NCBI GenBank assembly: GCA_946619915.1
Contig: CAMOMP010000008.1
Span: forward strand, 5,995 to 69,994
Reading direction: 5' to 3'
Length of the DNA stretch: 64,000 nt
Source: an uncultured Prevotellaceae bacterium
GTDB taxonomy: Bacteria > Bacteroidota > Bacteroidia > Bacteroidales > Bacteroidaceae
The position numbers were made by a program, and so were the translations under genes. Below the pieces are notes generated by a model. The model did no database searches, was not told where the DNA came from, and saw only the letters and a program-made list of their open reading frames with translations. Shown here in pieces: positions 3,608 through 55,359 of the stretch (position 1 is its first letter; every line of letters starts with the position of its first letter).

Positions 3608-5158
3608 TTACTTAGCGTAAGAAACAGAGCGAGTCTCACGGATAACGGTTATCTTAACCTGACCGGGATAGGTCATCTCGTTCTGAATCTTTGTAGCGAT
3701 ATCAGTACTTAACTGCTCAGTCTGCTTGTCGTCAATCTTATCAGCACCAACGATTACACGCAGCTCACGACCAGCCTGGATAGCATAGGTCTTAACAACG
3801 CCAGGATAACTCATGGCAATGTTCTCGAGATCCTTCAGACGCTTGATGTAAGCCTCTACAATCTCACGGCGAGCACCAGGACGGGCACCACTGATAGCAT
3901 CACAAACCTGAACAATGGGAGCCAACAGAGTGGTCATCTCCATCTCGTCATGGTGTGCACCAATGGCATTGCAGATGTCTGCCTTCTCCTTGTACTTCTC
4001 TGCCAACTTGGCACCATACAATGCATGTGGCATTTCAGGCTCCTCATCGGGCACCTTACCAATATCATGCAACAGACCTGCACGCTTAGCCTTCTTGGGA
4101 TTCAAGCCCAACTCGCTGGCCATAACAGCACAGAGGTTGGCAGTCTCGCGAGCATGCTGCAACAGGTTCTGTCCGTAGCTGCTACGATACTTCATCTTGC
4201 CAATGATACGAATCAGCTCCGGGTGCAAACCATGCACACCAAGGTCTATGGTAGTACGCTTACCAGTCTCTATGATTTCCTCGTCAACCTGCTTCTTCAC
4301 CTTGGCAACCACCTCTTCGATGCGGGCTGGATGGATACGTCCGTCAGCCACAAGCTGATGCAAAGCTAGACGGCATATTTCACGTCTAACAGGGTCGAAA
4401 GCACTGATTACAATAGCCTCGGGAGTGTCATCCACCACGATTTCAACACCTGTGGCAGCCTCCAAAGCACGGATGTTACGTCCCTCACGGCCAATAATAC
4501 GACCCTTCACCTCGTCGTTCTCTATATGGAACACCGTCACACTGTTCTCTACAGCTGTTTCCGTTGCCACACGCTGAATGGTCTGAATTATGATGCGCTT
4601 TGCCTCCTTGTTGGCTGTCATCTTGGCATCATCCATAATCTCGTTGATATAAGCGGCTGCGCTTGTCTTAGCTTCATCCTTGAGGGACTCTATCAAGCGC
4701 TCGCGGGCCTCATCCACACTAAGACCCGAGATTTCCTCCAACTTGGTTCTCTCCTGCTCCAGCAGACGACCCATACGCTGTTCAACCTCCTCTTCTTTCT
4801 TCTGAAGAACAGCCTGCTGTGTCTCCAGACGAGTACGCAATGTATCTGACTCCTGCTTACGGCGGGTCAGTTCATCCTGTCTCTGATTAAGGCTCAGTTC
4901 TCTCTGCTTGGCTCTGTTCTCAGCCTGCTGAATCTGCTGATTACGTTGGCGAACCTCTTTCTCGAGCTCAGCTTTCTTGCTGATGAACTTCTCCTTAACT
5001 TCCAGTAATTTCTTTTGTTTGATTATCTCGGCTTCCTGCTCTGCCTCCTTGGCCATTCTTTTACGCTTGCTTGGTAATACAGAAAAATACCATATGCAAA
5101 AAAGGACTGCGAAGGATACTACTCCAAACACCAGGCCGTAAATAATATAAGGTATCAT
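3608..5158 (-). CDS. rny: Ribonuclease Y
   Basis: N-terminal TM helix, long charged coiled coil, KH domain ([15 protein letters not shown]) and HD domain (GLLHDIGK). Confidence 0.95.
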
Positions 5159-5192
5159 GAATATTTAATGTTTGAATTATTAATTGGGGTCA

Positions 5193-5501
5193 TTAACTCT
5201 CTGATTTCTTCTCGAGTGCGGACTCCAACTCTGCAAGCAACGGCTTCAGACGACTGGCTATGGGCTCTATATCCATAGAAGTCTCTTGCTGCTTGACTTT
5301 AACAGCTATATCCAGAATAGTCATCACCAGGTACATCTCTGTACTCTGGCCAGGATAGCTGTTGGTATAAAAGTTGAACCTCTCCTTGATAAGCTTTTCT
5401 GCCTGTCTGTAAACGTATTCCTCTTCACGACGAACAGTCATAGGCAACGTCCAGCTGCCAAAACGGAGAGTTATTGATAAGGTATCACTTTGCTCAGCCA
5501 T
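5193..5501 (-). CDS. zapA: Cell division protein ZapA-like
   Basis: About 100 aa, ZapA-like N-terminal beta region plus helical tail, located immediately upstream of rny. Confidence 0.6.
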   Translation of the reverse strand: MAEQSDTLSITLRFGSWTLPMTVRREEEYVYRQAEKLIKERFNFYTNSYPGQSTEMYLVMTILDIAVKVKQQETSMDIEPIASRLKPLLAELESALEKKSES

Positions 5502-14387: not shown

Positions 14388-15554
14388 TTATGATAAAAAC
14401 ATATTGATAATTCTTTCACAAGCTTTACCGTCGCCATAAGGGTTCACAGCCTTGCTCATTTTGTCGTACGCTATTGGGTCATCTAATAACGTACTTACCT
14501 CATTCATAATCTTTTGATAATCTGTCCCTACCAAATGCACAGTGCCTGATTCCAAAGCCTCTGGGCGCTCTGTAGTATCACGCATAACCAATACAGGTTT
14601 TCCTAATCCAGGAGCTTCTTCTTGAATACCGCCACTATCCGTCAGCACAATGGTACTCTTTTCCATCAGATAAACAAACTCCAAATACTGAAGAGGTTCT
14701 ATGAAGAAGAAATTGTGAGCATCGCCCCACCCCTCTCCTTTCGAGAGGGAATCCATTCCTGCGAATATCTGGTGAATAGGTTTTCGTACATTGGGATTAA
14801 GATGCATCGGATAGACAAAATCCACATCAGGATATTTCTCCGAAAGATCCTTCAGAGCTGTTAGCATGCGAATAAATCCTTCGCCGAAATTTTCCCTTCT
14901 GTGTCCCGTAATGAGAACCAGGCGACGTTGACGATTAACATCGTAGCCAGAACAACGCAATATCTCTTGTTGCTTTGCAGCAAGTTCCGAGTCCGTTTTT
15001 AGTTTATCAACCACCATGTGCAACGCGTCTATTACCGTGTTGCCTGTTACAAAAATCTGCCCCTGTGCCTTCTCGTCTTTAAGATTACTCTCACTCAATG
15101 GAGTGGGAGCAAAATTGTATGTTGCTATCCGACTGGTTATCTGACGATTCATCTCCTCAGGCCATGGACTATACATGTTATAGGTACGAAGACCCGCTTC
15201 GACATGCCCCACGGGTATCTGCTGATAGAAAGCTGCGAGGGCGGCAGCAGTGGAAGTCGTTGTGTCACCATGTACCAGGACGACATCTGGCTGGGCTTCC
15301 TTCAGAACATCCCTCATCCCTAAAAGAACACGTGCTGTAATGTCATACAGGTCCTGACCCGATTTCATTATGTTCAGGTCGTAATCGGGTTTGATATCAA
15401 ACAGATTCAAAACCTGATCTAGCATCTCACGATGCTGTCCCGTAACGCACACAAGTGTTTCAAAGTTGTCGTTATATTGTTGAAACGCCTTTACCAAGGG
15501 AGCCATCTTGATAGCTTCTGGGCGCGTTCCAAATACAAGCATAATTTTCTTCAT
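14388..15554 (-). CDS. wecB: UDP-N-acetylglucosamine 2-epimerase (non-hydrolysing)
   Basis: FGTRPEAIKMAP, HVEAGLRT, TDSGGIQEEAP. Confidence 0.92.
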   Translation of the reverse strand: MKKIMLVFGTRPEAIKMAPLVKAFQQYNDNFETLVCVTGQHREMLDQVLNLFDIKPDYDLNIMKSGQDLYDITARVLLGMRDVLKEAQPDVVLVHGDTTTSTAAALAAFYQQIPVGHVEAGLRTYNMYSPWPEEMNRQITSRIATYNFAPTPLSESNLKDEKAQGQIFVTGNTVIDALHMVVDKLKTDSELAAKQQEILRCSGYDVNRQRRLVLITGHRRENFGEGFIRMLTALKDLSEKYPDVDFVYPMHLNPNVRKPIHQIFAGMDSLSKGEGWGDAHNFFFIEPLQYLEFVYLMEKSTIVLTDSGGIQEEAPGLGKPVLVMRDTTERPEALESGTVHLVGTDYQKIMNEVSTLLDDPIAYDKMSKAVNPYGDGKACERIINMFLS

Positions 15555-27499: not shown

Positions 27500-27898
27500 G
27501 GGGCTGACTGGATTTGACAGCAGGATGAGGTGTTGTGTAAGCACGCAGAGAGTTGGCAGCCGCTCTCTTTAATCAATGATTGCCAAAGATTATCTGGCGA
27601 AAACAACTACGCTCTCGCTGCCTAATCGAAGCACAGTAGATTACAGGCTTTATCTCGGCACCAGGTGCTGAGACGAGATGTCACTCTGGAGCTGTTGCTC
27701 CGAAGCATCCAGGCAAAGTGGCACAGCAAAATCGGGGATAGCTCATAACGGCCTCGCGTTGTGGGTGAGATTTAGAGGATAAGGTGCAGATTGGTGGCTC
27801 AGGTCTTGTCTGCACTCGAAAATCGAAGGCTGGGATAAGCGTGTAGAAAGCACAGGACGTCCCTGTTTGGACGAGGGTTCAATCCCCTCCAGCTCCAC
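27500..27898 (+). ncRNA. ssrA: tmRNA (SsrA)
   Basis: 5' GGGGCTGACTGGATTTGACAGC and 3' GGACGAGGGTTCAATCCCCTCCAGCTCCAC (tRNA-Ala-like acceptor and T arm). Tag reading frame 27596-27625 encodes GENNYALAA*. Confidence 0.95.
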
Positions 27899-27935
27899 TC
27901 ATTAGGGAGGATAGGGAAAAGCAACTAAGATTAGT

Positions 27936-28709
27936 ATGAAGTTGTATGCTAAGGTAATTGCCATTTTAGCGTTGCCACTTATTTTTGTGGTTGCTTATGC
28001 CTTATGCCCTATTCAATTGCCGCCTCCGGGCTGGACTCTCAGCAAGATAGACTTAAAAGCCTCACTTAGCCCCTCCAAAGGAGAGGTGAGGGACTCTGTC
28101 GCACCTTGTACAATCACCCCTCCCTTGGAGGGGACGGGGGAGGCTTCTTCTGACACAACGATCCAACGCATTCTCTTCTTTGGCGACTCTATGGCCGAAG
28201 GGTTGGTGCGACGTATGGCCGATTATGCTCAGGAGAACGGATACGATTTGGCACGCGTGATATGGTACAACTCCACCACCAAATTATGGGCCACATCCGA
28301 CACCTTGCAACATTATATTCACAAATATCACCCCACCTTCTTTATGGTATGCTTAGGAGGTAACGAACAGTTCCTAAAAGCACCCAAAGAAAGAGAAGCC
28401 TTCATCCGCCAAATCATAGACCGCATGGAGGGAAGACCTTTTGTGTGGATAGGCATTCCCACATGGAAGGGCGATACGGGATTTAATAATATGGTTCAGC
28501 AATGCGTAGGGGACGAGCGGTACTTCGACAGTCGCCGTCTTACCCTGAAACGTGGTTCCGACCGCGTTCACCCCACCTTCGGAGCTGCCAGCCTATGGAT
28601 GGACAGCATAGCAGTATGGATGAAAGACCGATACCCCATCCAAATGCAAAGGCCAACCCATAAAGCAACACGAAAGTTCCCCCTGCACCTGCTGCAACCT
28701 GTGAGATAA
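27936..28709 (+). CDS. SGNH/GDSL-family hydrolase or acyltransferase, membrane-anchored
   Basis: N-terminal TM anchor, block I FFGDSMAEG, VCLGGNE, block V DRVHP. The linker between anchor and domain is encoded by GC-rich repeat elements. Confidence 0.75.
   Translation: MKLYAKVIAILALPLIFVVAYALCPIQLPPPGWTLSKIDLKASLSPSKGEVRDSVAPCTITPPLEGTGEASSDTTIQRILFFGDSMAEGLVRRMADYAQENGYDLARVIWYNSTTKLWATSDTLQHYIHKYHPTFFMVCLGGNEQFLKAPKEREAFIRQIIDRMEGRPFVWIGIPTWKGDTGFNNMVQQCVGDERYFDSRRLTLKRGSDRVHPTFGAASLWMDSIAVWMKDRYPIQMQRPTHKATRKFPLHLLQPVR
28070..28144. repeat. Two degenerate GC-rich hairpin elements inside the SGNH CDS
   Basis: CCCCTCCAAAGGAGAGGTGAGGG (28070-28092) and CCCCTCCCTTGGAGGGGACGGGGGAGGC (28117-28144), same architecture as the intergenic elements. 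Confidence 0.7.
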
Positions 28710-28712
28710 AAG

Positions 28713-28745
28713 ACCAACCCCAACCCTCCCTTGAAGGGAGGGAGG
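28713..28745. repeat. GC-rich hairpin element (REP-like)
   Basis: ACCAACCCCAACCCTCCCTTGAAGGGAGGGAGG, 4 nt after the SGNH stop. Confidence 0.8.
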
Positions 28746-28746
28746 A

Positions 28747-28801
28747 TTAGAGTTTAGAGTTTAGAGTTTAGAGTTTAGAGTTTAGAGTTTAGAGTTTAGA
28801 G
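28747..28801 (+). repeat. Heptanucleotide tandem array (TTAGAGT) x7.9
   Basis: Seven perfect units plus TTAGAG. Ends 2 nt before the MBOAT ATG at 28804. Confidence 0.95.
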
Positions 28802-30330: not shown

Positions 30331-31512
30331 ATGACAGAATTACAACTTAAGTACGGATGCAATCCTAATCAGAAACCATCTCGCATCTACATGGAGGCAG
30401 GCGAGCTGCCTATCGAAGTGTTGAACGGCCGTCCCGGCTACATCAATTTCTTGGACGCTCTGAATGCATGGCAGTTAGTCAAAGAGTTAAAGGCTGCAAC
30501 AGGTCTGCCTGCAGCTGCCAGCTTCAAGCACGTTAGCCCTGCCGGAGCTGCTGTAGGTCTGCCCCTTACAGATACGCTACGCCACATCTACTTTGTACCC
30601 GAGAGCATTGGCGAACTCAGCGCCCAGGCTTGTGCCTATGCCAGAGCACGCGGTGCCGACCGTATGAGTAGCTATGGCGACTTCATTGCACTCTCCGATT
30701 GCTGCGACAAGGCAACAGCCCTGCTCATCAAGCCCGAGGTAAGTGATGGCGTTATCGCTCCCGAGTTTACGGAAGAGGCTCTGCAGATTCTGCGCGAGAA
30801 GCGTAAGGGTACTTACAACGTTATCAAGATTGACCCCACCTACAAGCCCGAGCCTATAGAGCGTAAGCAGGTCTTTGGCATTACCTTTGAACAAGGTCGC
30901 AACGAGGTTAAGCTGGATGATCCCGCTCTCTTCGAGAACATTCCCACCAAGAACAAGAATTTCCCCGCAGATGCCAAGCGCGACCTTATCATTGCTCTCA
31001 TCACTCTGAAGTACACCCAGAGCAACAGTGTATGCTACGTTAAGGACGGTCAGGCCATTGGTATCGGAGCAGGGCAGCAGAGTCGTATCCACTGTACCCG
31101 CCTGGCTGGCAGCAAGGCTGATATCTGGTGGTTGCGTCAGAACCCCAAGGTAATGGCACTTCCCTTCTTGCCTAATATCCGTCGTGCCGATCGCGACAAC
31201 ACCATCGACATCTATATCAGCGACGATTACATGGATGTCCTGGCCGATGGCGAATGGCAGAAATTCTTCACAGAGAAGCCCGAGCCTCTCACACGCGAGG
31301 AAAAGAAAGAGTGGATTGCACAGAACACCAATGTATGTTTGGGTAGCGATGCCTTCTTCCCATTCGGTGACAATGTTGAACGTGCCCACAAGAGTGGTGT
31401 TCAATACATTGCACAGGCTGGTGGTAGCGTTCGTGACGATCATGTTATCGATACCTGCGACAAGTACGGCATTGCCATGACCTTCACTGGCGTCCGTCTG
31501 TTCCACCATTAA
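30331..31512 (+). CDS. AICAR formyltransferase-domain protein (stand-alone, no IMP cyclohydrolase/MGS domain)
   Basis: KHVSPAG and GIGAGQQSRIH motifs of the PurH AICARFT domain. 393 aa, starting directly in the AICARFT domain. Confidence 0.8.
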   Translation: MTELQLKYGCNPNQKPSRIYMEAGELPIEVLNGRPGYINFLDALNAWQLVKELKAATGLPAAASFKHVSPAGAAVGLPLTDTLRHIYFVPESIGELSAQACAYARARGADRMSSYGDFIALSDCCDKATALLIKPEVSDGVIAPEFTEEALQILREKRKGTYNVIKIDPTYKPEPIERKQVFGITFEQGRNEVKLDDPALFENIPTKNKNFPADAKRDLIIALITLKYTQSNSVCYVKDGQAIGIGAGQQSRIHCTRLAGSKADIWWLRQNPKVMALPFLPNIRRADRDNTIDIYISDDYMDVLADGEWQKFFTEKPEPLTREEKKEWIAQNTNVCLGSDAFFPFGDNVERAHKSGVQYIAQAGGSVRDDHVIDTCDKYGIAMTFTGVRLFHH

Positions 31513-31519
31513 AGAAAAA

Positions 31520-31552
31520 GACCCTCCCCTGACCCCTCCCGTGAGGGAGGGG
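31520..31552 (+). repeat. GC-rich hairpin element, left inverted copy
   Basis: GACCCTCCCCTGACCCCTCCCGTGAGGGAGGGG, 8 nt after the upstream stop. Confidence 0.85.
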
Positions 31553-31585
31553 AATCAAAAAGAGGGGGAGACATTGCAAGTATTG

Positions 31586-31963
31586 ATGAATGATGAGCTA
31601 AAATGGGCAACGAGTGACAGATATTCTTTACTAAAGGATTGGGCTCGCCAAAATAGAAAGTGCCCCACAAACGCAGAAACCGTTCTATGGGAGCAACTAA
31701 GAGGAAGGAAATTAGGATTAAAGTTTTTCAGACAATATATTATAGCTGACTATATTGTGGATTTTGTCTCTCTGGAGTTTAACCTGATTATTGAGGTAGA
31801 TGGCTCTTATCATTCTGAATACGAACAGCTACAATATGATGAAGGACGTACACATCGTCTTGAATCATTAGGCTTTAAACTGATTCGTTTCACTAATGAA
31901 GAAGTTATCTTTCAAACAGATTATGTTTTAGGAATAATAAAAAAGATAATTAATGAGGAATAA
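31586..31963 (+). CDS. DUF559 (Vsr/restriction-endonuclease-like fold) domain protein
   Basis: ETVLWEQLRGRKLGLKFFRQ..IADYIVDFV..IIEVDGSYH..YDEGRTHRLESLGFKLIRFTNEEV. ATG at 31586 preferred over the GTG at 31541, which lies inside the repeat hairpin. Confidence 0.8.
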   Translation: MNDELKWATSDRYSLLKDWARQNRKCPTNAETVLWEQLRGRKLGLKFFRQYIIADYIVDFVSLEFNLIIEVDGSYHSEYEQLQYDEGRTHRLESLGFKLIRFTNEEVIFQTDYVLGIIKKIINEE

Positions 31964-32213
31964 TAATCCTACTACAAAACCCAATCTCCCCTCCATCACG
32001 GGAGGGGCCGGGGGTGGGTCTGACGATATTGCATCCGTTATACTTAACGGCATCACCTTCAAAGCTGGGTCTAAGGGCGACAAGAAAAAGAAAGAGGAGC
32101 CCAAGGTAAAGACCAAAGCTAAGAAGAAACAGTATATTACTGGAGCACACGGAAGCGGATCGGCTAAGATGAAAGCCGACATCCGCAAGAAACGTGCCAA
32201 CAGGCATAAATAA
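31953..32213 (+). CDS. Questionable Lys-rich 86-aa ORF
   Basis: The ATG overlaps the DUF559 stop and the N-terminal third is encoded by the repeat element. C-terminal part is very basic (KKKKEEPKVKTKAKKK..RKKRANRHK) and a terminator follows. Confidence 0.2.
   Translation: MRNNNPTTKPNLPSITGGAGGGSDDIASVILNGITFKAGSKGDKKKKEEPKVKTKAKKKQYITGAHGSGSAKMKADIRKKRANRHK
31988..32020 (-). repeat. GC-rich hairpin element, right inverted copy
   Basis: CCCCTCCATCACGGGAGGGGCCGGGGGTGGGTC. Confidence 0.85.
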
Positions 32214-32224
32214 TATGGAAAGAA

Positions 32225-32260
32225 GAAAGGGGGAAGAGCTTTTCGCATCTGCCCCCTTTC
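32225..32260. terminator. Bidirectional hairpin terminator
   Basis: GAAAGGGGG..loop..CCCCCTTTC followed by TTTTT, between convergent genes. Confidence 0.6.
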
Positions 32261-32263
32261 TTT

Positions 32264-32887
32264 TTAAGCCTTCAAGGAAAAATGCTGATTGAAGAGCTGG
32301 CGCAGCATAGCCTCATCATCAATGATGCCCTGCAATTGTCTCAGACGTTCTGCATTGGGTGAATCCTCGAACCACAGATGCAGGTAGCCATTACGTCCAT
32401 ATTTCTCGTGCAGATGCGAGAGCATACGTTGGTAGTGCCCCTCCCTGTCAAGTTCCGGATAGTGGTCGATACCATACTGAATGGTTCTGCGAATGATAGT
32501 GTCTGCATCAATGAAGCGATCAGCCTCGGCTACTATACGGCCATAGATGGTGCGAGGCTCATGGCCCGAAGAGGCACGATGGTCTTCGGCAGCATCAGCC
32601 ATTATGTTGATCTGTTCCTCCGCGAACCACTTTCGCAACGTCTGGTCAGCTCTGATAATCCTTGAAGAAACCTCGTGATGATGCTCGCGGCCTTCACACA
32701 AACCTGTATCATGATAGGCCGCAATGACATACGCCATATCTGCATCAGCCCCTAACTTCTCTGCCAGCTCCAGACTCTGCCGGATAACCATCAGCACATG
32801 GTCGCGCTGATGTGCCTTATCGAAACTGTCATACTGCGGTATAATGTTCTGCTCTACATATTTCTTCAATTCTGCATTGATGACCAT
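32264..32887 (-). CDS. HD-domain phosphohydrolase
   Basis: H..H..(AAYHDTG) HD motif and a distal DRF Asp. 207 aa. Confidence 0.75.
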   Translation of the reverse strand: MVINAELKKYVEQNIIPQYDSFDKAHQRDHVLMVIRQSLELAEKLGADADMAYVIAAYHDTGLCEGREHHHEVSSRIIRADQTLRKWFAEEQINIMADAAEDHRASSGHEPRTIYGRIVAEADRFIDADTIIRRTIQYGIDHYPELDREGHYQRMLSHLHEKYGRNGYLHLWFEDSPNAERLRQLQGIIDDEAMLRQLFNQHFSLKA

Positions 32888-33043: not shown

Positions 33044-34402
33044 ATGGAAATAGGAAAAATCACAGAAAGAATCAGAGTTTTCTTCAACATCCTGCCCGAC
33101 AAGGAGGATGAACAGGAAATCATTGCCCAAATTAGCAGCGGCGTATCCTTTAGGGGGGCTAACCTATGGGTTCTCATTTTTGCCATCTTCATTGCATCAT
33201 TGGGACTGAATGTCAACTCCACTGCAGTTATCATAGGTGCCATGCTGATATCGCCCCTGATGGGTCCTATCATAGGAATGGGACTGGCTGTCGGCATTAA
33301 CGACCTGAGCCTACTGAAACGTTCAGCCAAAAACTACGGTGTGGCAACATTAATTAGTGTACTTACGGCAACAGTCTATTTTCTGATATCTCCCCTTAGC
33401 GAGGCTCAGTCTGAGCTGTTGGCACGCACCTCTCCTACCCTATACGATGTACTCATAGCCTTCTGCGGCGGTGCAGCAGGAATCATAGCCCTTTGTACAC
33501 GGGGCAAGGGCAACGTCATTCCTGGCGTAGCTATTGCAACGGCTTTGATGCCTCCCCTCTGTACGGCAGGATTCGGATTGGCAACAGGCCACTGGCTCTA
33601 TTTTTTAGGGGCATTTTATCTCTTTTTTATCAATACGGTATTTATTGCCCTTGCCACCTTCCTTGGAGTTAGGTTCCTACAGTTCAGCCAGCACAAGTTT
33701 GTATCCTCTGCAAGTGCTACAAGGGCGCGCCGTATCATGATGGTGCTGGTGGTTGTTACCATGCTACCAGCAGCCTTTATGACCATGCAGATTGTAAAGC
33801 AGAGCGTATTCAACAATAATGTGAACCGTTTCATCAAAGCCGAGTTGCAACAGCGAGGCACCCAGATTATTTCCAACAACGTGGACCGTGATAGCCTGAA
33901 ACTTCGGATAGTGGCTGTAGGACGCGAGATTTCCGAGGCTCATCAGCGGGAAGCACAGAAGAGGATGGAGTTCTATGGACTGAACGGCTTTGAATTGAGG
34001 GTAATACAAGGAGCACAGTCAGACAGTTTGATTCTACTGAACAACGAGCTAACGGCTATGAATACCAGCAGAAAATCCGACCGACAGCAACTGATGAACC
34101 TGACGGCTCAGGTAAGTTTGCTCAGTTCCCAACTAGACGATTATACCCGCTATGAAGCGCTTTCCAAAGATGTGAGCAACGAATTGGCAACACTCTTCCC
34201 ACAAGTAGAAACCCTGAACCTGGCTCGTGTTGCCCATGCTAGTAACGACACTACAAGCACAGCTCATTTTGTTGCGGCCATCATTGAAACCACTAACACC
34301 AAGCCTTTGCCAAAGGCTGATGCAGAAAAGTTGCGCGAATGGCTACAAATCAGGATCAAGGCAGACAGTCTGATAGTAGTGGATGCCAAGCAATATAAAT
34401 AA
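33044..34402 (+). CDS. DUF389-family membrane protein with C-terminal coiled-coil extension
   Basis: Gly/Pro-rich TM core ([29 protein letters not shown]) typical of DUF389/TIGR00341-type proteins. Confidence 0.65.
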
Positions 34403-34439
34403 AAAAACAGTCTATTCACCCCCAAAAACTCTACAAGAT

Positions 34440-36029
34440 ATGTTTACAGACAACAAGTTATACGTGGCACATGGTCAGAACGGACCAATATGCCTTTGCG
34501 GAAAGATGGCAAACCGTCACGGCCTGATAGCAGGAGCAACAGGAACCGGCAAGACCGTAACCTTGCAAGTATTGGCCGAGACATTCTCGCAAGCTGGCGT
34601 TCCCTGCTTTATGGCCGACATGAAGGGCGACCTCTCGGGTATCAGTCAGACAGGACAGCTATCTGGGTTTATAGAGAAACGTTGTGCTGAGTTCGGAATC
34701 GAGAACCCGCAATTCCAAGGCAGTCCTGTTTGCTTCTACGATGTATTCGGAGAGAAAGGACATCCCATGCGCACCACCATCTCTAATATGGGCCCCGAGC
34801 TGTTGTCGCGCCTGATGGAGCTGAACGAGGTGCAAGCTGGCGTGATGACTATTCTCTTCAAGGTAGCCGACGAGCGTAGACTCTTGTTGTTAGACCTGAA
34901 AGACCTGCGCTCCATGCTCACCTATATCTCAGACCATGCATCGGAGCTGACCAAGCAGTACGGCAATGTATCCAGCGCCAGTGTGGGAGCGATCCAGCGA
35001 GCTCTGCTCAGACTGGAGGATCAGGGAGCAGACAAATTCTTCGGCGAACCGGCCTTCGACATTATGGACCTACTGCAATGCCGTGCCGATGGAAAAGGTA
35101 TCATGAGTGTACTGGCTGCCGACAAGCTGATGCTGAATCCCAAGCTCTATTCCACTTTCCTGTTGTGGCTGTTGTCCGACCTCTATGTTCGTCTGCCAGA
35201 AGTGGGTGATCAGGAGTTGCCACGACTGGTATTCTTCTTCGACGAGGCTCACACCCTCTTTACAGATACGCCCAAGAGCTTAGTGGACAAGATAGAACAA
35301 GTGGTTCGACTCATCCGCAGCAAGGGCGTTGGCGTTTACTTCGTAACTCAGAATCCTACAGATATACCTGACTCTGTACTGGCTCAGTTGGGTAACCGTG
35401 TGCAGCATGCCCTGCGTGCTTTCACACCCAAGGAACAGAAGAATGTCAGGGCTGCAGCAGAGACCTTCCGTGCCAACCCCAACTTCAAGACAGAGGAGGC
35501 CATCATGGAACTGGGCACAGGCGAAGCCCTTGTATCCTTCCTCGACGAGAAGGGAACGCCCACCATTGTTGAGCGTGCCAAGGTACTCTTCCCCCTTAGC
35601 CAGATAGGGGCCATTACGGATGCACAACGCGATCAGATTATCAAGTCCTCGCGCATCTTTGGCAAATACGACAACGTCATAGATCGCGAGAGTGCCTTCG
35701 AAGTGCTGCTGGAAGCCTCATCCCAACCCTCTTTAGAGGAAGAGGAGCAAGAAGTAAAGGGCAAAGGGCAAGAGCAGTCCTCGACTTCGAAGGAGTCGAA
35801 GAGTGGCTCAAAAAGCAGTTGGAAGAAATCCTTCTTCGGCAAGATTCTTAGCGCCATCATCACCAGTGTTACGGCTGCTCTGGGAACATACGTAGCCAAT
35901 ACCGTTACAGGTAGTAAGAGACGTTCGAAGGACTCCTTAGGCAAGAAAGTGACAAAAACCGCAGTCAGCACAGCCACACGAACCGCCACACGCGAGCTCA
36001 CCCGCAGCATCTTAGGTAATCTGAAGTAA
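34440..36029 (+). CDS. DUF853 / HerA-like P-loop ATPase (YjgR family)
   Basis: [17 protein letters not shown] (Walker A) and LVFFFDEAH (Walker B). Alternative upstream ATG at 34383 overlaps the previous gene by 20 nt. Confidence 0.8.
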
Positions 36030-36033
36030 AAAA

Positions 36034-36077
36034 GGAAGCCCCTCTCCCCCTTCCCCTCCCCCAAATGGGAGGGGAGA
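36034..36077. repeat. GC-rich hairpin element (variant subfamily)
   Basis: GGAAGCCCCTCTCCCCCTTCCCCTCCCCCAAATGGGAGGGGAG, close to the reverse complement of the copy at 42061-42099. Confidence 0.85.
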
Positions 36078-42060: not shown

Positions 42061-42099
42061 CCCCTCCCATTTGGGGGAGGGTTAGGGAGAGGGGCTTCC
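42061..42099. repeat. GC-rich hairpin element (variant subfamily) in the fba 5' leader
   Basis: CCCCTCCCATTTGGGGGAGGGTTAGGGAGAGGGGCTTCC, between the -7 box at 42110 and the fba ATG. Confidence 0.85.
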
Positions 42100-50919: not shown

Positions 50920-51002
50920 CCCCTTTCCCCGCTTCCCCGAGGGGAAGAGCCTACTATTAACAAAAAACATACCTCTCCCCCTCGAGGGAGTTGGAGAGGG
51001 GG
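50920..51002. repeat. Pair of GC-rich hairpin elements in opposite orientation (cargo-less pair)
   Basis: CCCCTTTCCCCGCTTCCCCGAGGGGAAGAGCC (50920-50951) and CCTCTCCCCCTCGAGGGAGTTGGAGAGGGGG (50972-51002), separated by 20 nt. Confidence 0.7.
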
Positions 51003-51022: not shown

Positions 51023-51604
51023 ATGCATAGATTTCCGATTATATTTTTTATATTGCTTGGCTGCTGCTGTAATGTTTCGGCACAGCAAGTGAAGATGCGT
51101 GACGTATTTGCTCAGGCACCTGACAGCATATTCCCCTTGTTGACAAAGAACAACAAGTTGGACTGCATAGACTTCATTGAGAATAAAATGAGGGCAAGAG
51201 TGAAGAACAAGTTCGACACTTATTCCGAGCTGACAACTCTTACGGACGACTTCCTGCGCATTCAAATATCAGAGAAGAGTTCTGCTGAGATGAAGTTGGT
51301 AAACGACACACTGCTTTGTGTGGTCAAAACATATTACGGCCCAGGGGCAGACAGCAAAGTATATTTCTACAACACCCAATGGCAACCTGTCAGCTATAAC
51401 CTGGAGCGCCCCAAGGCTGACGATTTCTTTCTGCCGGGTGCTGACGGGGAGGTTTGCGGTCTGTTGCGTCAACTGCCCCTCATTAAGGCCAGCCTCAGCC
51501 GTGACGATACCACCCTGACATGGGAACTGCAGATAACGGAACTGACTGAGACACAGAAAAGGACCATTGAGCATTCCCTCACCTCTATTGCCATTAAGCT
51601 GTAG
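51023..51604 (+). CDS. Secreted protein of unknown function (DUF3256-like, tentative)
   Basis: Signal peptide. MRDVFAQAPDSIFPLLTKNNKLDCIDF pattern recalled from DUF3256 proteins. Confidence 0.5.
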   Translation: MHRFPIIFFILLGCCCNVSAQQVKMRDVFAQAPDSIFPLLTKNNKLDCIDFIENKMRARVKNKFDTYSELTTLTDDFLRIQISEKSSAEMKLVNDTLLCVVKTYYGPGADSKVYFYNTQWQPVSYNLERPKADDFFLPGADGEVCGLLRQLPLIKASLSRDDTTLTWELQITELTETQKRTIEHSLTSIAIKL

Positions 51605-51605
51605 A

Positions 51606-51633
51606 GGCCCCATCCCTCCCGTCAGGGAGGGAG
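51606..51633. repeat. GC-rich hairpin element
   Basis: GGCCCCATCCCTCCCGTCAGGGAGGGAG between convergent stops. Confidence 0.8.
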
Positions 51634-52536: not shown

Positions 52537-52568
52537 CCCCCTCCCTCGGGAGGGTCGGGGTGGGGTCC
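52537..52568. repeat. GC-rich hairpin element
   Basis: CCCCCTCCCTCGGGAGGGTCGGGGTGGGGTCC, touching the truA stop codon. Confidence 0.8.
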
Positions 52569-53296
52569 TAATACTCTATCTTCACTAAGAACAAGGCGTT
52601 GCCCGGCACACTTTCGCCGGCTGAGCAACGGTTCTTCTGTTCTATCACCTTACAGAAATCCTCTTTCGTCATTCTGCCCCTGCCCACCTCAAGGAGTGTT
52701 CCCACAATGGCACGTACCATATTACGTAGGAAACGGTTGGCTGTAATGGTAAAACGCCACTGACCTGAGCCAACTTCGTCCCAGTGCGCCTCGGTAATAG
52801 TGCATAGATTGGTCTTAGTATCCGTATTGACCTTAGAGAAACTGGTAAAATCCTGATACTGGAGCAACATCTGTGCAGCCTCGTTCATCGCCTGAAAATC
52901 AATCTTTCCGTGTAGCAGCCAGCTATAGTGGCGACAAAAGGGGTCCTTCTGGGTGTGCACAAAATAATGATAGGTCCGGCTGGTAGCAGAGAAACGGGCA
53001 TGCATATCATCATCTACCCTTTCTACCTTCTGCACAGCAATATCCTGTGGCAGTATTTTATTCAACCTATAGGCAAGCTGAGGACAGTCGATAGCCTCAT
53101 CAAAATCAAAGTGTGCCACCATCATCCGAGCATGAACGCCGGCATCGGTTCTGCCGGCTCCCACCACCTCAGTCTCCTTACGCAGCAGAGTGGATAGTGC
53201 CTGCTGCAATGTTTCCTGCACGCTGATACCATTGGGCTGTATCTGCCAGCCGTGGTACCGGGTCCCGTCATATGACAGGGTTATAAAGTATCGCAT
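52568..53296 (-). CDS. truA: tRNA pseudouridine(38-40) synthase
   Basis: [14 protein letters not shown] and the catalytic-Asp motif [11 protein letters not shown]. Confidence 0.92.
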
Positions 53297-53304
53297 ACTA
53301 AAAG

Positions 53305-55359
53305 TTATCTGACAAAAATCTTTTTTCCATTCCTGATATAGATGCCAGGCTTATGCGGAGCAGTTACCCTACGGCCAGAGAGGTCATATACCTCCCCTCC
53401 ATTACGGGAGGGGTTGGGGGTGGGTCCGGCAATGCCCATCTCCTCATCATAATTACTCATCTGTATATCATCTATGTTCAGACGTTTGGAGGCTACCCCA
53501 CCGCCCTGGAACTTCAGACGTATATTACCCGGCTGACAGATAGCAAAACCATAGCGCTGCCATCCTTCAAACGACTGTAACGTAGTCACCTCTTTCCAAG
53601 TAAGACCGCCATCCAGAGAATAACTTACCGTTAATGTGGCACCTGTATCATTATTATAGTTGCCTGCATAGAACCAAAGTGAGTCACACCCGCCCATCTT
53701 ATCGGTTTTCATCTCTGCAAAGCCAGAGCTTTTCATTCTCAGCGATGTTGCAATGTTCGATTTGGCATCCTTCCCTAACATAGCATCGCTTAGCATCCAC
53801 GTTGCTGCTGCACATTTCACCTCAGCGGCAGCATAGCTACCCTTAGATCCTGTTTCAAAGTCCTCAAAGAATGGTTTCTGTTCATCCACACTACCCAAGA
53901 GTGCTATCACGCAGTCATCAACATCCTTTGTACTCAGCGTCATAGTACCCGTGTAATTACCTGCTTCCTGAGCCGAGAGACGGACAAAGAACGTAGTACC
54001 GTTAGACGAGCACAACAAGGTTATCATCTTAGACCAATCCTCGTCATCGGCATCCGGGTCATCAGAAACCTCGTAAGGATCTTGGACAACAGCTGTAAAC
54101 TTATTATCCTTTGTTGCAAACATTGTAACCGTGACAGCAGTGGCTGTACTGGCCACACCAGGAGTAGTTGTGAAAGTAATCCTGCCAGGCGATACACTAA
54201 ACACAGGAGTCAATGCAGGGAAGTCAACCCTGACCTCGTTACTCTGAGCAACTATCTGAGTGCCACTATAGACAAACACTTGATAATAATAGGTAGTCTC
54301 AACATTCACACCAGTTACCCTATAGGTGTTTTCAGTGGTGGTAACGGGGAAGCCCTGAAGTGAAGTCTTTTTGCCGTTGGCATCCTTTTCGTAAACATTC
54401 AATGTGTATTCACAGCCATCCTGATATTTACTCCAGCTGGCATCGAAACGTCGTGAATAAATAGAACTTACAATTTCGCTGGCCGGGTATGCGGTAAAGT
54501 CATACTCGTCATCAGGAATATCAGTAGAAGCTGATGAGACATTAAATGCCACATTGATACTGTCACCCCAGATGTACTCAGCAAGATTAGGAAAGTCTAT
54601 GAAGGGATTTCTATTGCCCTGAATACCATAAACCGCCTCATTACGTTCCTTCTCTATCTCATCAACGGGATCCTGACGGTTCCACTTCAGGAACAGTTCA
54701 TAAGCCCATGGCTGTAGTGTAGGCCATTCGTCATTCTGCAGCATATTCAATCCTTCGCCTGTCCATGTAAGATTGCTATAGGTGGTTACCATATAGAAAT
54801 AGTTACGGGCAAAGTCACCTTTCCATTCATCAGCAGGTTCCCATAGATTGGCATTTTTCCCACCGGCATCACCAGTTCCCACCTTAGTGCAACCATTATT
54901 GGTTTTGACTTTTGATACCACCCCCATAGCGTAATTGCTCTTAGCGGTATTTATACTTACCTCACAAGGCATCAGGTTAAAAAGATCCTTATACGCCTGA
55001 TTCTTATCCCCACCCCACCAGCTCTTAGGAAACGAGTGTTCAATGTTCATACCATTAGCAGCATCGGTACTTTCTGGCGAGGAGCCTGCAGGAAAATAAA
55101 ATACCTCGTAGCTATAGCGGTCGCGTACCTGATTACCATTGTAACGGTCTGTAACGTAAAAACCAGACCAGGTTTTGCCTGGGCCTCCTCCATAATCAAG
55201 TACTGTAGCTGTCTTTATTACATTACGGAACGCACTCTTCAATTCAGCTTTTTTCTTGCCGTTCACGCTCGCATAGTATTCGTATGGTACATCTGCCCAT
55301 ACGCTGCATAAGCAGCACATGAACGCAACAAGGGCAGCCAGATTTCTATAGGTCTTCAT
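53305..55359 (-). CDS. Endonuclease I-family secreted nuclease with beta-sandwich domains and a T9SS C-terminal sorting domain
   Basis: [13 protein letters not shown] and [19 protein letters not shown] (Endonuclease I motifs). C-terminus ..VYDLSGRRV...[13 protein letters not shown] is a T9SS CTD. Confidence 0.8.
53394..53427. repeat. GC-rich hairpin element inside the nuclease CDS
   Basis: CCCCTCCATTACGGGAGGGGTTGGGGGTGGGTCC, 30/33 identical to 31988-32020. Translated as ..[13 protein letters not shown].. Confidence 0.85.

Follow-up and report, generated by a model that had tools for sequence, protein, structure and literature searches.

The 64,000 nt stretch of DNA analysed here, referred to as the window, has a gene for a small DUF559 protein downstream of purH, lying between inverted copies of a hairpin element that recurs at a number of other positions. 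This locus raises the question of whether a nuclease gene and a family of dispersed repeats are parts of a single genetic unit and, if so, what kind of unit it is.

Structure of the unit downstream of purH

The features in this region are:
31520-32020, plus strand: whole cassette, composed of the left repeat, the DUF559 ORF and the right repeat, 501 bp
31520-31552, minus strand: left terminal repeat, plus-strand letters GACCCTCCCCTGACCCCTCCCGTGAGGGAGGGG
31988-32020, plus strand: right terminal repeat, inverted relative to the left, letters CCCCTCCATCACGGGAGGGGCCGGGGGTGGGTC
31586-31963, plus strand: DUF559 (Vsr / EDxHD-like) nuclease ORF of 125 aa, with a PF04480 match
30331-31512, plus strand: upstream host gene purH (AICARFT, PF01808)
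31953-32213, plus strand: downstream host gene encoding a small lysine-rich protein

The raw sequence agrees with the original prediction that the ORF is framed by inverted 33 nt elements, the reverse complement of the right repeat matching the left at 29 of 33 positions; the left repeat was also correctly placed as beginning 8 nt past the purH stop, which ends at 31512 and leaves 7 nt between. The left repeat consists of a C-rich outer segment (31520-31529), a 3 nt loop and the hairpin CCCCTCCC-GTGA-GGGAGGGG (31533-31552). Read on the minus strand, as CCCCTCCC TCAC GGGAGGGG TCA GGGGAGGG, it is a perfect purine-motif intrastrand triplex motif of eight triads, the DNA hairpin of which has a folding energy of -10.2 kcal/mol when only Watson-Crick folding is counted. 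The right repeat has the hairpin CCCCTCC-ATCAC-GGGAGGGG, a CCG loop and a third strand, GGGGTGGG, followed by TC. Target-site duplications were said to be absent, and no direct repeats were found at the junctions read, either in the window or at other loci. A search of the window against Rfam matched only RNase P RNA and tmRNA, with no group I intron around the DUF559 ORF.

The identification of the ORF as DUF559, also made in the original prediction, is upheld by a PF04480 score of 104.2 bits against a gathering cut-off of 20.6 (E = 4.4e-30). Pfam otherwise gives only a sub-threshold match to MTES_1575, and detects no N-terminal NUMOD or HTH DNA-binding region in the 125 aa protein. A profile of 31 homologues matches the structures PDB 3HRL (E = 7e-26) and 3R3P, that of I-Bth0305I (E = 1.5e-6), and the putative catalytic residues E31, D59, E70, D72, H76 and D85 are invariant across these homologues. 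On sequence grounds, DUF559 and the EDxHD homing endonucleases fall within one Vsr-like group; with a dN/dS of ~0.08, at a divergence that saturates synonymous sites, the ORF is by this measure under purifying selection. DUF559 is a very large family in which, to our knowledge, a role has been assigned only to a few intron and intein endonucleases.

The downstream gene lacks its native start codon, the native part of the sequence being recognisable from ~32022 (DDIASVILNGITF...), and its frame is open backwards through the right repeat as far as 31953, where an ATG overlaps the 3' end of the DUF559 ORF. The same arrangement is found at loci L011, L012 and L014, and an ATG overlapping the nuclease ORF, or within its last 40 nt, is present in 46 of 75 cassettes elsewhere. 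The idea that the repeats are free of stop codons in all frames was found to be only weakly true: 32 of 59 right repeats are stop-free in all plus-strand frames, against 33% of random 35-mers. The asymmetry of stop codons between the inward and outward directions of the repeats is likewise modest, and no claim made here rests on stop-freeness.

Related elements elsewhere in the window

At least ten more copies of the repeat had been anticipated in the window. That it recurs is confirmed, although the number was slightly generous, as about nine further elements were counted, at ~28070 (imperfect), 28117, 28724, 36052, 42062, 51613, 52539, 53394 and 14731. A hairpin at 50977 looks to be of a different type. 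The core pattern CCCCTCCC-N4-GGGAGGGG, allowing up to two mismatches, was found six times in the window and never in 100 shuffled sequences, whilst a general scan for hairpins with a C-rich and a G-rich arm gave ten in the window and between zero and two in each of 20 shuffles. A search for class II triplexes detected eight G/C-rich motifs in the window, including both ends of the cassette, and none in ten shuffles; this test required a pyrimidine arm separated by a loop from a purine arm of at least 6 nt and, beyond a second loop of 1-6 nt, a third strand that runs antiparallel to the purine arm, the allowed triads being G*G, A*A or T*A. In seven of the eight motifs the second loop is 3 nt long. 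The elements outside the cassette for which boundaries were set are:
28117-28143, plus strand: solo triplex-motif element, with an imperfect hairpin at ~28070-28095 just upstream
28713-28742, minus strand: solo element, beginning 4 nt past the stop of ORF 27936-28709
36038-36075, minus strand: solo element, beginning 9 nt past the stop of ORF 34383-36029
42062-42095, plus strand: solo element whose second loop is TTA, like that of the E. coli TMECO type A
51605-51632, strand not assigned: hairpin element TCCCTCCC-GTCA-GGGAGGGA with a short C-rich outer segment
52539-52569, plus strand: solo element, the outer end of which overlaps the stop of the minus-strand ORF 52568-53296
53391-53427, plus strand: solo element within a minus-strand ORF of 684 aa

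Not all of these are intergenic. The element at 28117-28143 and the hairpin upstream of it are both translated in the variable linker of a 257 aa SGNH-like ORF, and that at 53391-53427 is translated in frame as residues 644-656, between the body of the protein and a C-terminal sorting-type tail; its 53394-53426 portion is, as originally stated, identical to the right repeat at 30 of 33 positions. The 51605-51632 element lies directly past the stop of ORF 51023-51604 and fails the formal triplex-motif test. Although the 42062-42095 element is a near inverted copy of that at 36038-36075, the notion that these two (at 36038 and 42095) mark the ends of a 6 kb unit is unsupported, each being found in a spacer beside an ORF boundary. 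A G-quadruplex reading of the G-rich strand was also discarded: most copies have four G-tracts and several just three, and the triplex-motif description fits all of them better.

The original prediction described these sequences as a REP-like repeat family. They do constitute a dispersed hairpin repeat, but rather than a new REP-like family they correspond to the known BoxC / PIT / TM intrastrand-triplex motif (PMC4666352), TMECO in E. coli, repeats of which occur in this species and in more than 260 other bacteria (Holder et al. 2015, PMC4666352), following earlier work, as cited there, by Bachellier and by Hoyne and Maher. The likeness extends to the order of parts, with a C-rich arm, a loop, a G-rich arm, a 3 nt second loop (TTA, CCG or TCA) and a G-rich third strand mirroring the purine arm, and to the G/C-rich composition, the dispersal, the frequent inverted doublets and the variable loci. 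These repeats are described as purely intergenic, with neither an associated gene nor a link to mobile elements (PMC4666352), whereas motifs of the type found in the window form the inverted ends of a nuclease gene cassette and also occur in frame inside genes. A further difference is that the third strands are directed inwards in the E. coli doublets, which include TMECO 1+2 and 7+8, but outwards in the Bacteroidota cassettes.

Association of DUF559 genes with repeats in other genomes

The expectation that DUF559 genes are flanked by such repeats more often than other genes was borne out by 82 DUF559 genes sampled in other genomes of the Bacteroidota, as 59 (72%) of them have hairpin elements within 130 nt on both sides, compared to seven of 639 control ORFs (1.1%). 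In 28 of the 31 pairs that could be classified, both elements have their extra C-rich segment on the outer side, and the mean inverted-repeat alignment score is 25.7 at DUF559 loci, against 12.4 for cross-locus controls. Since the loops are the same at both ends in 35 of 59 pairs, yet vary widely from cassette to cassette, the two ends of one cassette appear to be copies of each other. Beyond the Bacteroidota, repeat elements were found nearby at all eight of the loci inspected, from Neisseria, three cyanobacteria, Deinococcus, Sinorhizobium, Azospirillum and Photobacterium, the orientation in the cyanobacteria and Neisseria departing from the Bacteroidota rule; the Deinococcus copy is associated with paaD and paaZ. 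In E. coli, the DUF559 gene ycjD is adjoined by TMECO no. 9, with a repeat on one side only. No paper tying DUF559 to BoxC, PIT or triplex-motif repeats was found in the open-access literature.

Solo copies just past stop codons and the stability of the hairpins are what would be expected if there were no link at all, the hairpins being terminators, insulators or REP-like fillers found in any spacer, two of which lie close together around a small gene. This explanation is strongly disfavoured, and we accord it the very slightest probability, in view of the flanking enrichment and the sharing of loops between the ends of a cassette. Moreover, neither a T-tract nor a terminator-like site (a G+C-rich hairpin followed by a T-tract) was found within 31300-32400, elements also occur inside coding regions, and the sequence block common to loci L041 and L044, described below, stops exactly at the repeat ends. 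PIT/BoxC sequences themselves have neither terminator nor promoter activity, according to the studies as cited in PMC4666352.

Mobility and inheritance of the cassette

Loci L041 and L044, which come from different species but represent the same site, share a 486 nt block that is identical at 485 positions from outer repeat end to outer repeat end, whilst the left flanks are ~90% identical and the right flanks ~80-85% identical over the first 250 nt. The boundaries of the cassette in the window were set by analogy with this block. Cassettes within one genome can also be closely related despite lying at different gene junctions, with paralogues 92% (L075) and 87% (L030) identical. The resemblance to MITEs that had been remarked upon is real, in that short inverted doublets without an ORF share their ends and subterminal sequence with the cassette; examples are L019 1908-2034 (compared with the cassette at L019 4933-5448), L013 6143-6290, L083 and L072, the last with three copies. 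The pair of elements at L013 9710 and 10091 was considered as evidence of a second type of cargo and rejected, the two being of different types and at the ends of different genes. Insertions are also found inside genes: in RecG of Winogradskyella tangerina M1309, an in-frame insert of 150 aa falls, in terms of the RecG structure, between residues 515 and 519, and others are present in WecB, a ValRS-like gene and GH31. We know of no mechanism that would enable a lone 125 aa Vsr-like nuclease to place DNA at new sites without homology, for example inside recG.

At the purH site itself the picture is one of greater stability. Ten loci aligned from the 22 conspecific contigs read are colinear and 97.7-99.9% identical, with no indel at any element; empty sites were therefore sought in other species. 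The presence/absence polymorphism proposed at the outset emerged at this level, the cassette being missing from 78 of 80 metagenomic purH orthologues; L092 is the sole carrier amongst the 80, the sequence of L109 being of insufficient length for a call. In and next to the cassette-bearing clade, the purH site is found in solo, remnant, doublet and empty states. No recombination signature was detected near the cassette in comparison with the nearest empty relative, L091, purH identity being uniform at 85-90%. The closest homologues of the window cassette (76-88% identical) are all at the purH site, hence the cassette behaves here as a vertically inherited, selected gene: the insertion is old, is vertically inherited in one clade of rumen Bacteroidales and is kept functional.

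Even where the site and the ORFs are orthologous, the repeats may be of type A, type B or, in L012, a hybrid of the two, so that the ends are evidently exchangeable independently of the ORF. This could be taken to mean that the repeats are moved by another enzyme, by host recombination or by replication slippage, with DUF559 either a frequent passenger or a gene that inserts preferentially where a pair of inverted repeats already exists. Single-strand Y1 transposases typically use hairpin ends as their substrates, and the repeats outnumber the DUF559 genes, by 8-10 to one in the window and by 23 to one in E. coli. We nevertheless think this reading improbable: DUF559 is partnered with repeats in at least five phyla, between which the repeat sequences differ, whereas a passenger ought not to be the same gene each time; the other small ORF known from the purH spacer, encoding a four-helix-bundle protein, is flanked by different repeats; and no transposase gene lies beside the elements in the window or at the loci read.

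The stability of the gene could be accommodated if DUF559 is a domesticated host nuclease that processes or controls triplex- and hairpin-forming repeats, for instance by relieving stalled forks, such that the gene is no longer mobile and the flanking repeats are relics or regulatory substrates. RAYTs, which are thought to be domesticated partners of REPs, provide a parallel. The strength of purifying selection across such divergence, the stable position in all strains sampled and in the whole clade, and the integration of the cassette into the translation of the host operon are all in keeping with this, as is the instability reported at such repeats (Holder et al., PMC4666352), which a cell might need to manage. 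Several features point the other way: diverged copies, often several per genome, lie at unrelated junctions and in some cases inside genes, the distribution is patchy even amongst close relatives, the cassettes of L041 and L044 are near-identical in species with flanks ~85% identical, and ycjD is apparently absent from ~38% of E. coli genomes (an absence confirmed in one). On account of these, a selfish element is preferred to a housekeeping function, and domestication is regarded as unlikely.

Comparison with known systems

The resemblance to REP/RAYT systems suggested by the original prediction stands, as in both systems inverted copies of the palindromic repeat dispersed in the genome lie on either side of a single small gene, and the inverted doublet is the unit. 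However, RAYTs are Y1/HUH (IS200/IS605-type) transposases that are usually single-copy and vertically inherited, whereas DUF559 is a Vsr-like nuclease of the PD-(D/E)xK superfamily, often present in multiple copies, and its repeats have a third-strand segment. Unlike an autonomous transposon with its MITEs, the cassette has neither a target-site duplication nor a recognised transposase, its sole ORF being DUF559.

Free-standing homing endonuclease genes of phages (seg/mob type) are ORFs between conserved genes that are polymorphic for presence or absence and subject to lateral replacement at one and the same site; they have no terminal inverted repeats or MITE-like derivatives, and their flanks are co-converted, in contrast to the identity between L041 and L044 that ends with the repeats. 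Vsr acts in very-short-patch repair in partnership with a neighbouring cytosine-5 methyltransferase, but no such gene is next to the DUF559 gene of the window, the neighbours of which are purH and the genes for the small basic protein and an HD-domain protein. Selfish elements that are short and palindromic, and that protein-coding genes tolerate in frame, include the Rickettsia palindromic elements and, in fungal mitochondria, mobile GC clusters and double-hairpin elements, the mitochondrial ones sometimes lying beside free-standing endonuclease ORFs. These differ in sequence and host, and we know of no description of a DUF559 partner for them.

The EDxHD (Vsr-like) homing endonucleases, the prototype of which, I-Bth0305I, functions as a dimer and has a pseudo-palindromic target (PMC3239194), have a catalytic domain homologous to that of the DUF559 protein, in which the E...D...H...D residues are kept, and are similarly encoded by selfish genes with a patchy distribution at a fixed site. 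The DUF559 gene of the window differs in lacking a NUMOD/HTH domain and an association with an intron or intein, being free-standing between purH and a small gene, and its cassette differs in having inverted structured repeats, ORF-less derivatives and many sites per genome.

A proposed family of selfish cassettes

On balance we favour, as the probable explanation, that the 501 bp unit is a resident member of a family of cassettes that are selfish and mobile, the doublets and solo elements being its non-autonomous or decayed derivatives. This family is widespread and apparently undescribed, and may explain the origin of the BoxC or "triplex" repeats; we infer that the nuclease acts on the repeats and drives the mobility. 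Each cassette would comprise a DUF559 gene bounded by inverted, G/C-rich hairpin-plus-third-strand elements of the BoxC / PIT / triplex-motif type, and would be arranged collinearly with host operons, such that its left end abuts the upstream stop codon and the ATG overlapping the nuclease stop could restart translation through the right repeat into the downstream gene. As the repeats are predicted to encode Pro/Gly-rich linkers with few stop codons, cassettes and solo elements could also sit in frame inside genes. In the proposed cycle, the nuclease, probably as a dimer, would cut or nick a pseudo-palindromic repeat or a repeat-like target, and the break would be repaired from a cassette-bearing copy, with the 33-50 bp repeats serving as portable homology. 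The ORF would in this way spread into doublets and between genomes, and its loss would leave doublets and solo elements behind.

A more ambitious proposal, which we put forward tentatively and with less than even confidence, is that DUF559 and the BoxC / PIT / triplex repeats together constitute one ancient, bacteria-wide class of mobile element with a mechanism unlike that of known transposons or homing elements. The orphan repeats, numbering in the thousands across E. coli, Neisseria, cyanobacteria, Deinococcus and the Bacteroidota, would then be MITE-like offspring, and targets may be chosen for their likeness to the G-rich end of the element, as at argC junctions. The built-in restart and the linker-coding ends would make insertion into operons and genes nearly harmless.

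BoxC / PIT / TM repeats have been known since the 1990s, from hundreds of bacterial genomes, without an origin, a mobility mechanism or a partner protein having been found. The link between DUF559 and these repeats offers each an explanation, one that is directly testable in E. coli through ycjD and the TMECO loci. Ends that encode flexible linkers, together with a restart codon, would represent an unusual means of reducing the cost of selfish DNA, allowing it to lie between or inside genes without silencing them. Recognition of a structured or triplex-forming site by the nuclease, were it confirmed, could also make the enzyme of interest as a tool.

Structure and identity of the cassette repeats

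The 501 bp cassette downstream of purH consists of a DUF559 gene lying between two inverted 33 nt elements, an arrangement which, as originally described, is borne out by the raw sequence:

31520-31552: left element, GACCCTCCCCTGACCCCTCCCGTGAGGGAGGGG, starting 8 nt past the purH stop codon
31586-31963: DUF559 ORF of 125 aa (PF04480, E 4.4e-30)
31988-32020: right element, the reverse complement of which matches the left element at 29 of 33 positions

The described similarity of the copy at 53394 to the right repeat (30/33 identical) was likewise recovered. The core hairpin pattern occurs six times in the window and never in shuffled sequence, whilst a general scan for hairpins with a C-rich and a G-rich arm identified 10, against 0-2 in shuffles. 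Each element comprises such a hairpin (C-rich arm, loop, G-rich arm), followed by a 3 nt second loop and a segment mirroring the purine arm, termed the third strand. On the G-rich strand, the cassette ends read:

left end: CCCCTCCC TCAC GGGAGGGG TCA GGGGAGGG
right end: CCCCTCC ATCAC GGGAGGGG CCG GGGGTGGG

Judged from sequence, this three-part layout is that by which a purine-motif intrastrand triplex is defined. A motif search written to this definition gave eight G/C-rich hits in the window, as against none in 10 shuffles, with the second loop being 3 nt long in seven of the eight. Both the architecture and the second loops (TTA, CCG) are the same as those of the BoxC, PIT or TMECO repeats of E. 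coli (Holder et al., PMC4666352), which form triplexes in vitro, lack promoter or terminator activity, and are found at variable loci, sometimes as inverted doublets, but were described as "not associated" with mobile elements or any gene class (PMC4666352). No terminator-like sites were found in the cassette region. When translated in all frames, the repeats encode 23% Pro and 21% Gly.

Nearly all of the copies in the window lie between 28 and 53.5 kb, downstream of the tmRNA gene (27500-27900); the first 27 kb, which includes the class A RNase P RNA gene (251-629), has a single doubtful hairpin, at 14731. Two solo elements, 36038-36075 and 42062-42095, are near-perfect inverted copies separated by 6 kb of ordinary genes, which is probably a coincidence of family and orientation. 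Another, at 28713-28742, is directly followed by a perfect heptamer array (TTAGAGT x 7.9, 28747-28801) preceding an MBOAT gene.

Association of DUF559 genes with inverted repeats

The link between nuclease and repeats, proposed from this one locus, was upheld in 80 loci with DUF559 homologues (48-76% identical) taken from GTDB genomes, nearly all of them from rumen or gut Bacteroidales, with one Winogradskyella and one Hymenobacter. Hairpin elements lay within 130 nt on both sides of 59 of the 82 DUF559 genes, but flanked only seven of 639 other ORFs of at least 150 aa within the same loci, which establishes the association. The layout is inverted: alignment of the left flank with the reverse-complemented right flank gave a mean score of 25.7, as opposed to 12.4 for cross-locus controls, and exceeded the control 95th percentile in 41/82 cases. 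An extra C-rich segment was outermost at both sides in 28 of 31 classifiable pairs. The loop sequence is identical at the two ends in 35/59 cassettes, yet highly variable among cassettes; hence the ends are true inverted copies of one another. Only three of the 80 loci have the purH context, the remainder occupying a wide variety of gene junctions; in several genomes, a 10 kb stretch contains two or three copies.

Evidence for a discrete and mobile unit

The boundaries of the unit are established by two loci from different GTDB species, L041 and L044, which are identical at 485 of 486 positions (L041 4922-5407) in a block whose limits coincide exactly with the outer ends of the two repeats. 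The 500 nt to the left are around 90% identical, differing mainly at third codon positions, and the first 250 nt to the right around 80-85%. Paralogous cassettes are also found at different junctions of the same genome, being 92% (L075) and 87% (L030) identical. The L075 pair (409-780 and 4986-5357) has the same stems, with the loops TGTTA and TTTCC swapped between the left and right ends.

Short derivatives of the cassette exist as well. Inverted doublets of 90-230 nt, which contain no ORF, have the ends and subterminal sequence of cassettes in the same genome, in agreement with the suggested resemblance to pairs of autonomous and MITE elements; in L019, doublet and cassette share the motif AACAA(T/C)GCGCCAGC, and L072 has three almost identical doublets in 4 kb. 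No target-site duplication was found, as had been stated originally.

A comparison of orthologous positions for empty sites was suggested originally, and filled, solo, doublet and empty states of the purH spacer are indeed found across species. Among 80 metagenomic purH orthologues (83-99% aa identity), 78 lacked DUF559, L092 had it and L109 was too short to judge; in most, the purH stop codon is followed, after a short spacer, by the gene for a small basic protein (MNFGGDDID...). In the purH tree, the loci with a cassette group in a single clade, which also includes a locus with just the left solo element (L091), one with the right solo element and an apparent remnant of the ORF start (L093), and an empty one with the native start intact (L094). 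A more distant branch has an inverted doublet with no ORF in this spacer (L119). The repeats at this site are of type A (CCCCTCCC), type B (CTCCCCC) or, in L012, a hybrid.

In the rumen Bacteroidales species from which the window derives, no polymorphism of the cassette was found among conspecific strains; the identical protein is present in the metagenome-assembled genomes GCA_017634135.1 and GCA_017476245.1 and in rumen metagenomes. The closest homologues (76-88% identical) are all at the purH site. Hence this cassette is an old resident, inherited vertically.

In other species (L101; L117, 2371-2739; L133) the same spacer holds a different small ORF, encoding a four-helix-bundle protein of the 23S rRNA intervening sequence type (TIGR02436, E 7.8e-30) and preceded by TAATGCATAATGC-type tandem repeats. 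Elsewhere it is filled with short tandem arrays (GTGAAGA, GTTTAC(G/T), TAATGCA) resembling that at 28747-28801. This spacer seems to receive insertions of several kinds of small, selfish-looking gene. Nearly all relatives have a conserved, very basic protein of around 61 aa after purH (...KVKTKAKKKQYITGAHGSGSAKMKADIRKKRANRHK; 32022-32213 in the window, orthologues in L091-L170), which has no Pfam or NCBIfam match.

Fit into host operons and genes

For most cassettes, the host ORF upstream extends as far as the outer edge of the left repeat, its stop codon lying 8-18 nt ahead of the hairpin in 33/59. At the other end, 46 of 75 stand-alone cassettes have an ATG in the last 40 nt of the DUF559 ORF or overlapping its end, usually just ahead of, or overlapping, the stop codon, from which the frame reads on across the right repeat and into a host gene of the same orientation; 15 more have an ATG just past the stop codon, and only five lack a co-oriented downstream ORF. 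The small gene in the window has lost its native ATG, and is open from an ATG at 31953 to give MRNNNPTTKPNLPSITGGAGGGS-DDIASV..., as is also the arrangement in L011, L012 and L014. Translation would start at the ATG overlapping the DUF559 end. Hence, given the upstream stops, the restart ATGs and the Pro/Gly-rich linkers, the cassette appears to be built for expression with the operon and continued translation of the downstream gene.

Insertions are also tolerated in frame. Cassettes inside genes have neither start nor stop codon of their own, the repeats being read as linkers rich in Pro and Gly. One such insert makes up residues 417-566 of the Winogradskyella tangerina RecG, and falls between positions 515 and 519 in the structure of the T. 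maritima enzyme; further hosts are WecB (L038, L062), a ValRS-like gene (L060) and GH31 (L072). For some copies, a fusion with LeuC, LeuB or RNase H was found. In the window, a 684 aa protein (minus-strand ORF 53305-55359) includes the in-frame translation of the solo element at 53391-53427, and elements at 28070-28143 lie within the variable linker of a 257 aa protein. The former element is just before a C-terminal tail resembling a type IX secretion sorting domain (VYDLSGRRV...).

The 5' junction of argC is occupied in L020, L021, L026-L028, L032, L041, L044 and L055. At these junctions the third strand of the right repeat sometimes consists of host codons for IKVGV or VRVG, whilst at others the argC start is intact and has a similar but separate segment ahead of it. 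Such a pattern hints at either a target preference for sequence resembling the element end, or a later merger of two similar segments. L021 is recorded as Faecalibacterium prausnitzii, with cassette and context the same as in the Prevotella contig L020, and probably represents wrong binning of a Bacteroidales contig, not a copy in Firmicutes.

Recurrence in other phyla

In E. coli K-12, the DUF559 gene is ycjD (L180, NC_000913.3, 1351200-1351830), the end of which is formed by a degenerate repeat. Beyond this lie, in order, a partial second copy of the ycjD 3' end and TMECO no. 9, whose hairpin precedes its third strand, as in a right repeat. Of 5426 complete E. coli genomes, 3346 cover the fabI-ycjD-sapF query region in full, including ycjD, and around 38% lack most of it; in one inspected genome among those remaining (L189), a TetR regulator, an RND efflux operon and an MFS transporter stand between fabI and sapF in place of the whole ycjD-repeat segment, with no repeat. 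Eight DUF559 loci of other phyla, drawn from PLSDB records, all had triplex-type elements within around 200 nt:

Deinococcus: perfect inverted flanks, between paaD and paaZ
Synechocystis: cassette apparently splitting a DUF1156 gene
Pseudanabaena, Picosynechococcus: inverted flanks, third strand inward
Neisseria: direct repeats
Sinorhizobium, Azospirillum, Photobacterium: doublets adjoining the gene

The sequence of the repeats differs among phyla, whilst the partnership itself recurs across phyla.

The nuclease and the nature of the element

A profile of 31 homologues matches two PDB entries: 3HRL (E 7e-26), a DUF559 protein of Neisseria, and 3R3P (E 1.5e-6), which is the catalytic domain of homing endonuclease I-Bth0305I. 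The invariant residues E31, D59, E70, D72, H76 and D85 are consistent with the E-D-x-H-D active site of the I-Bth0305I family (PMC3239194); the window protein has no NUMOD or HTH domain. Median dN/dS among eight purH-site orthologues is 0.076 for DUF559, 0.033 for purH and 0.067 for the small gene, hence the nuclease is maintained by selection.

The enzyme may cut at the pseudo-palindromic repeat, or at a target resembling it, in which case repair from a cassette copy would spread the ORF, with the repeats acting as portable homology; this proposal covers spread to sites other than wholly new ones. A simple transposon does not fit the absence of target-site duplication, the differing repeat types at the orthologous purH site, or the argC third strands drawn from host codons.

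The closest known kinds of element are selfish nuclease-gene elements and REP/RAYT-like or autonomous/MITE pairs. The repeat type and the protein family were each known separately, and no paper tying DUF559 to BoxC, PIT or TM repeats, or to flanking inverted repeats, was found among the open-access papers searched. What appears to be new is their combination in a cassette that has MITE-like derivatives, a translational restart and ends coding for linkers, and there is a substantial chance that it represents a distinct class.
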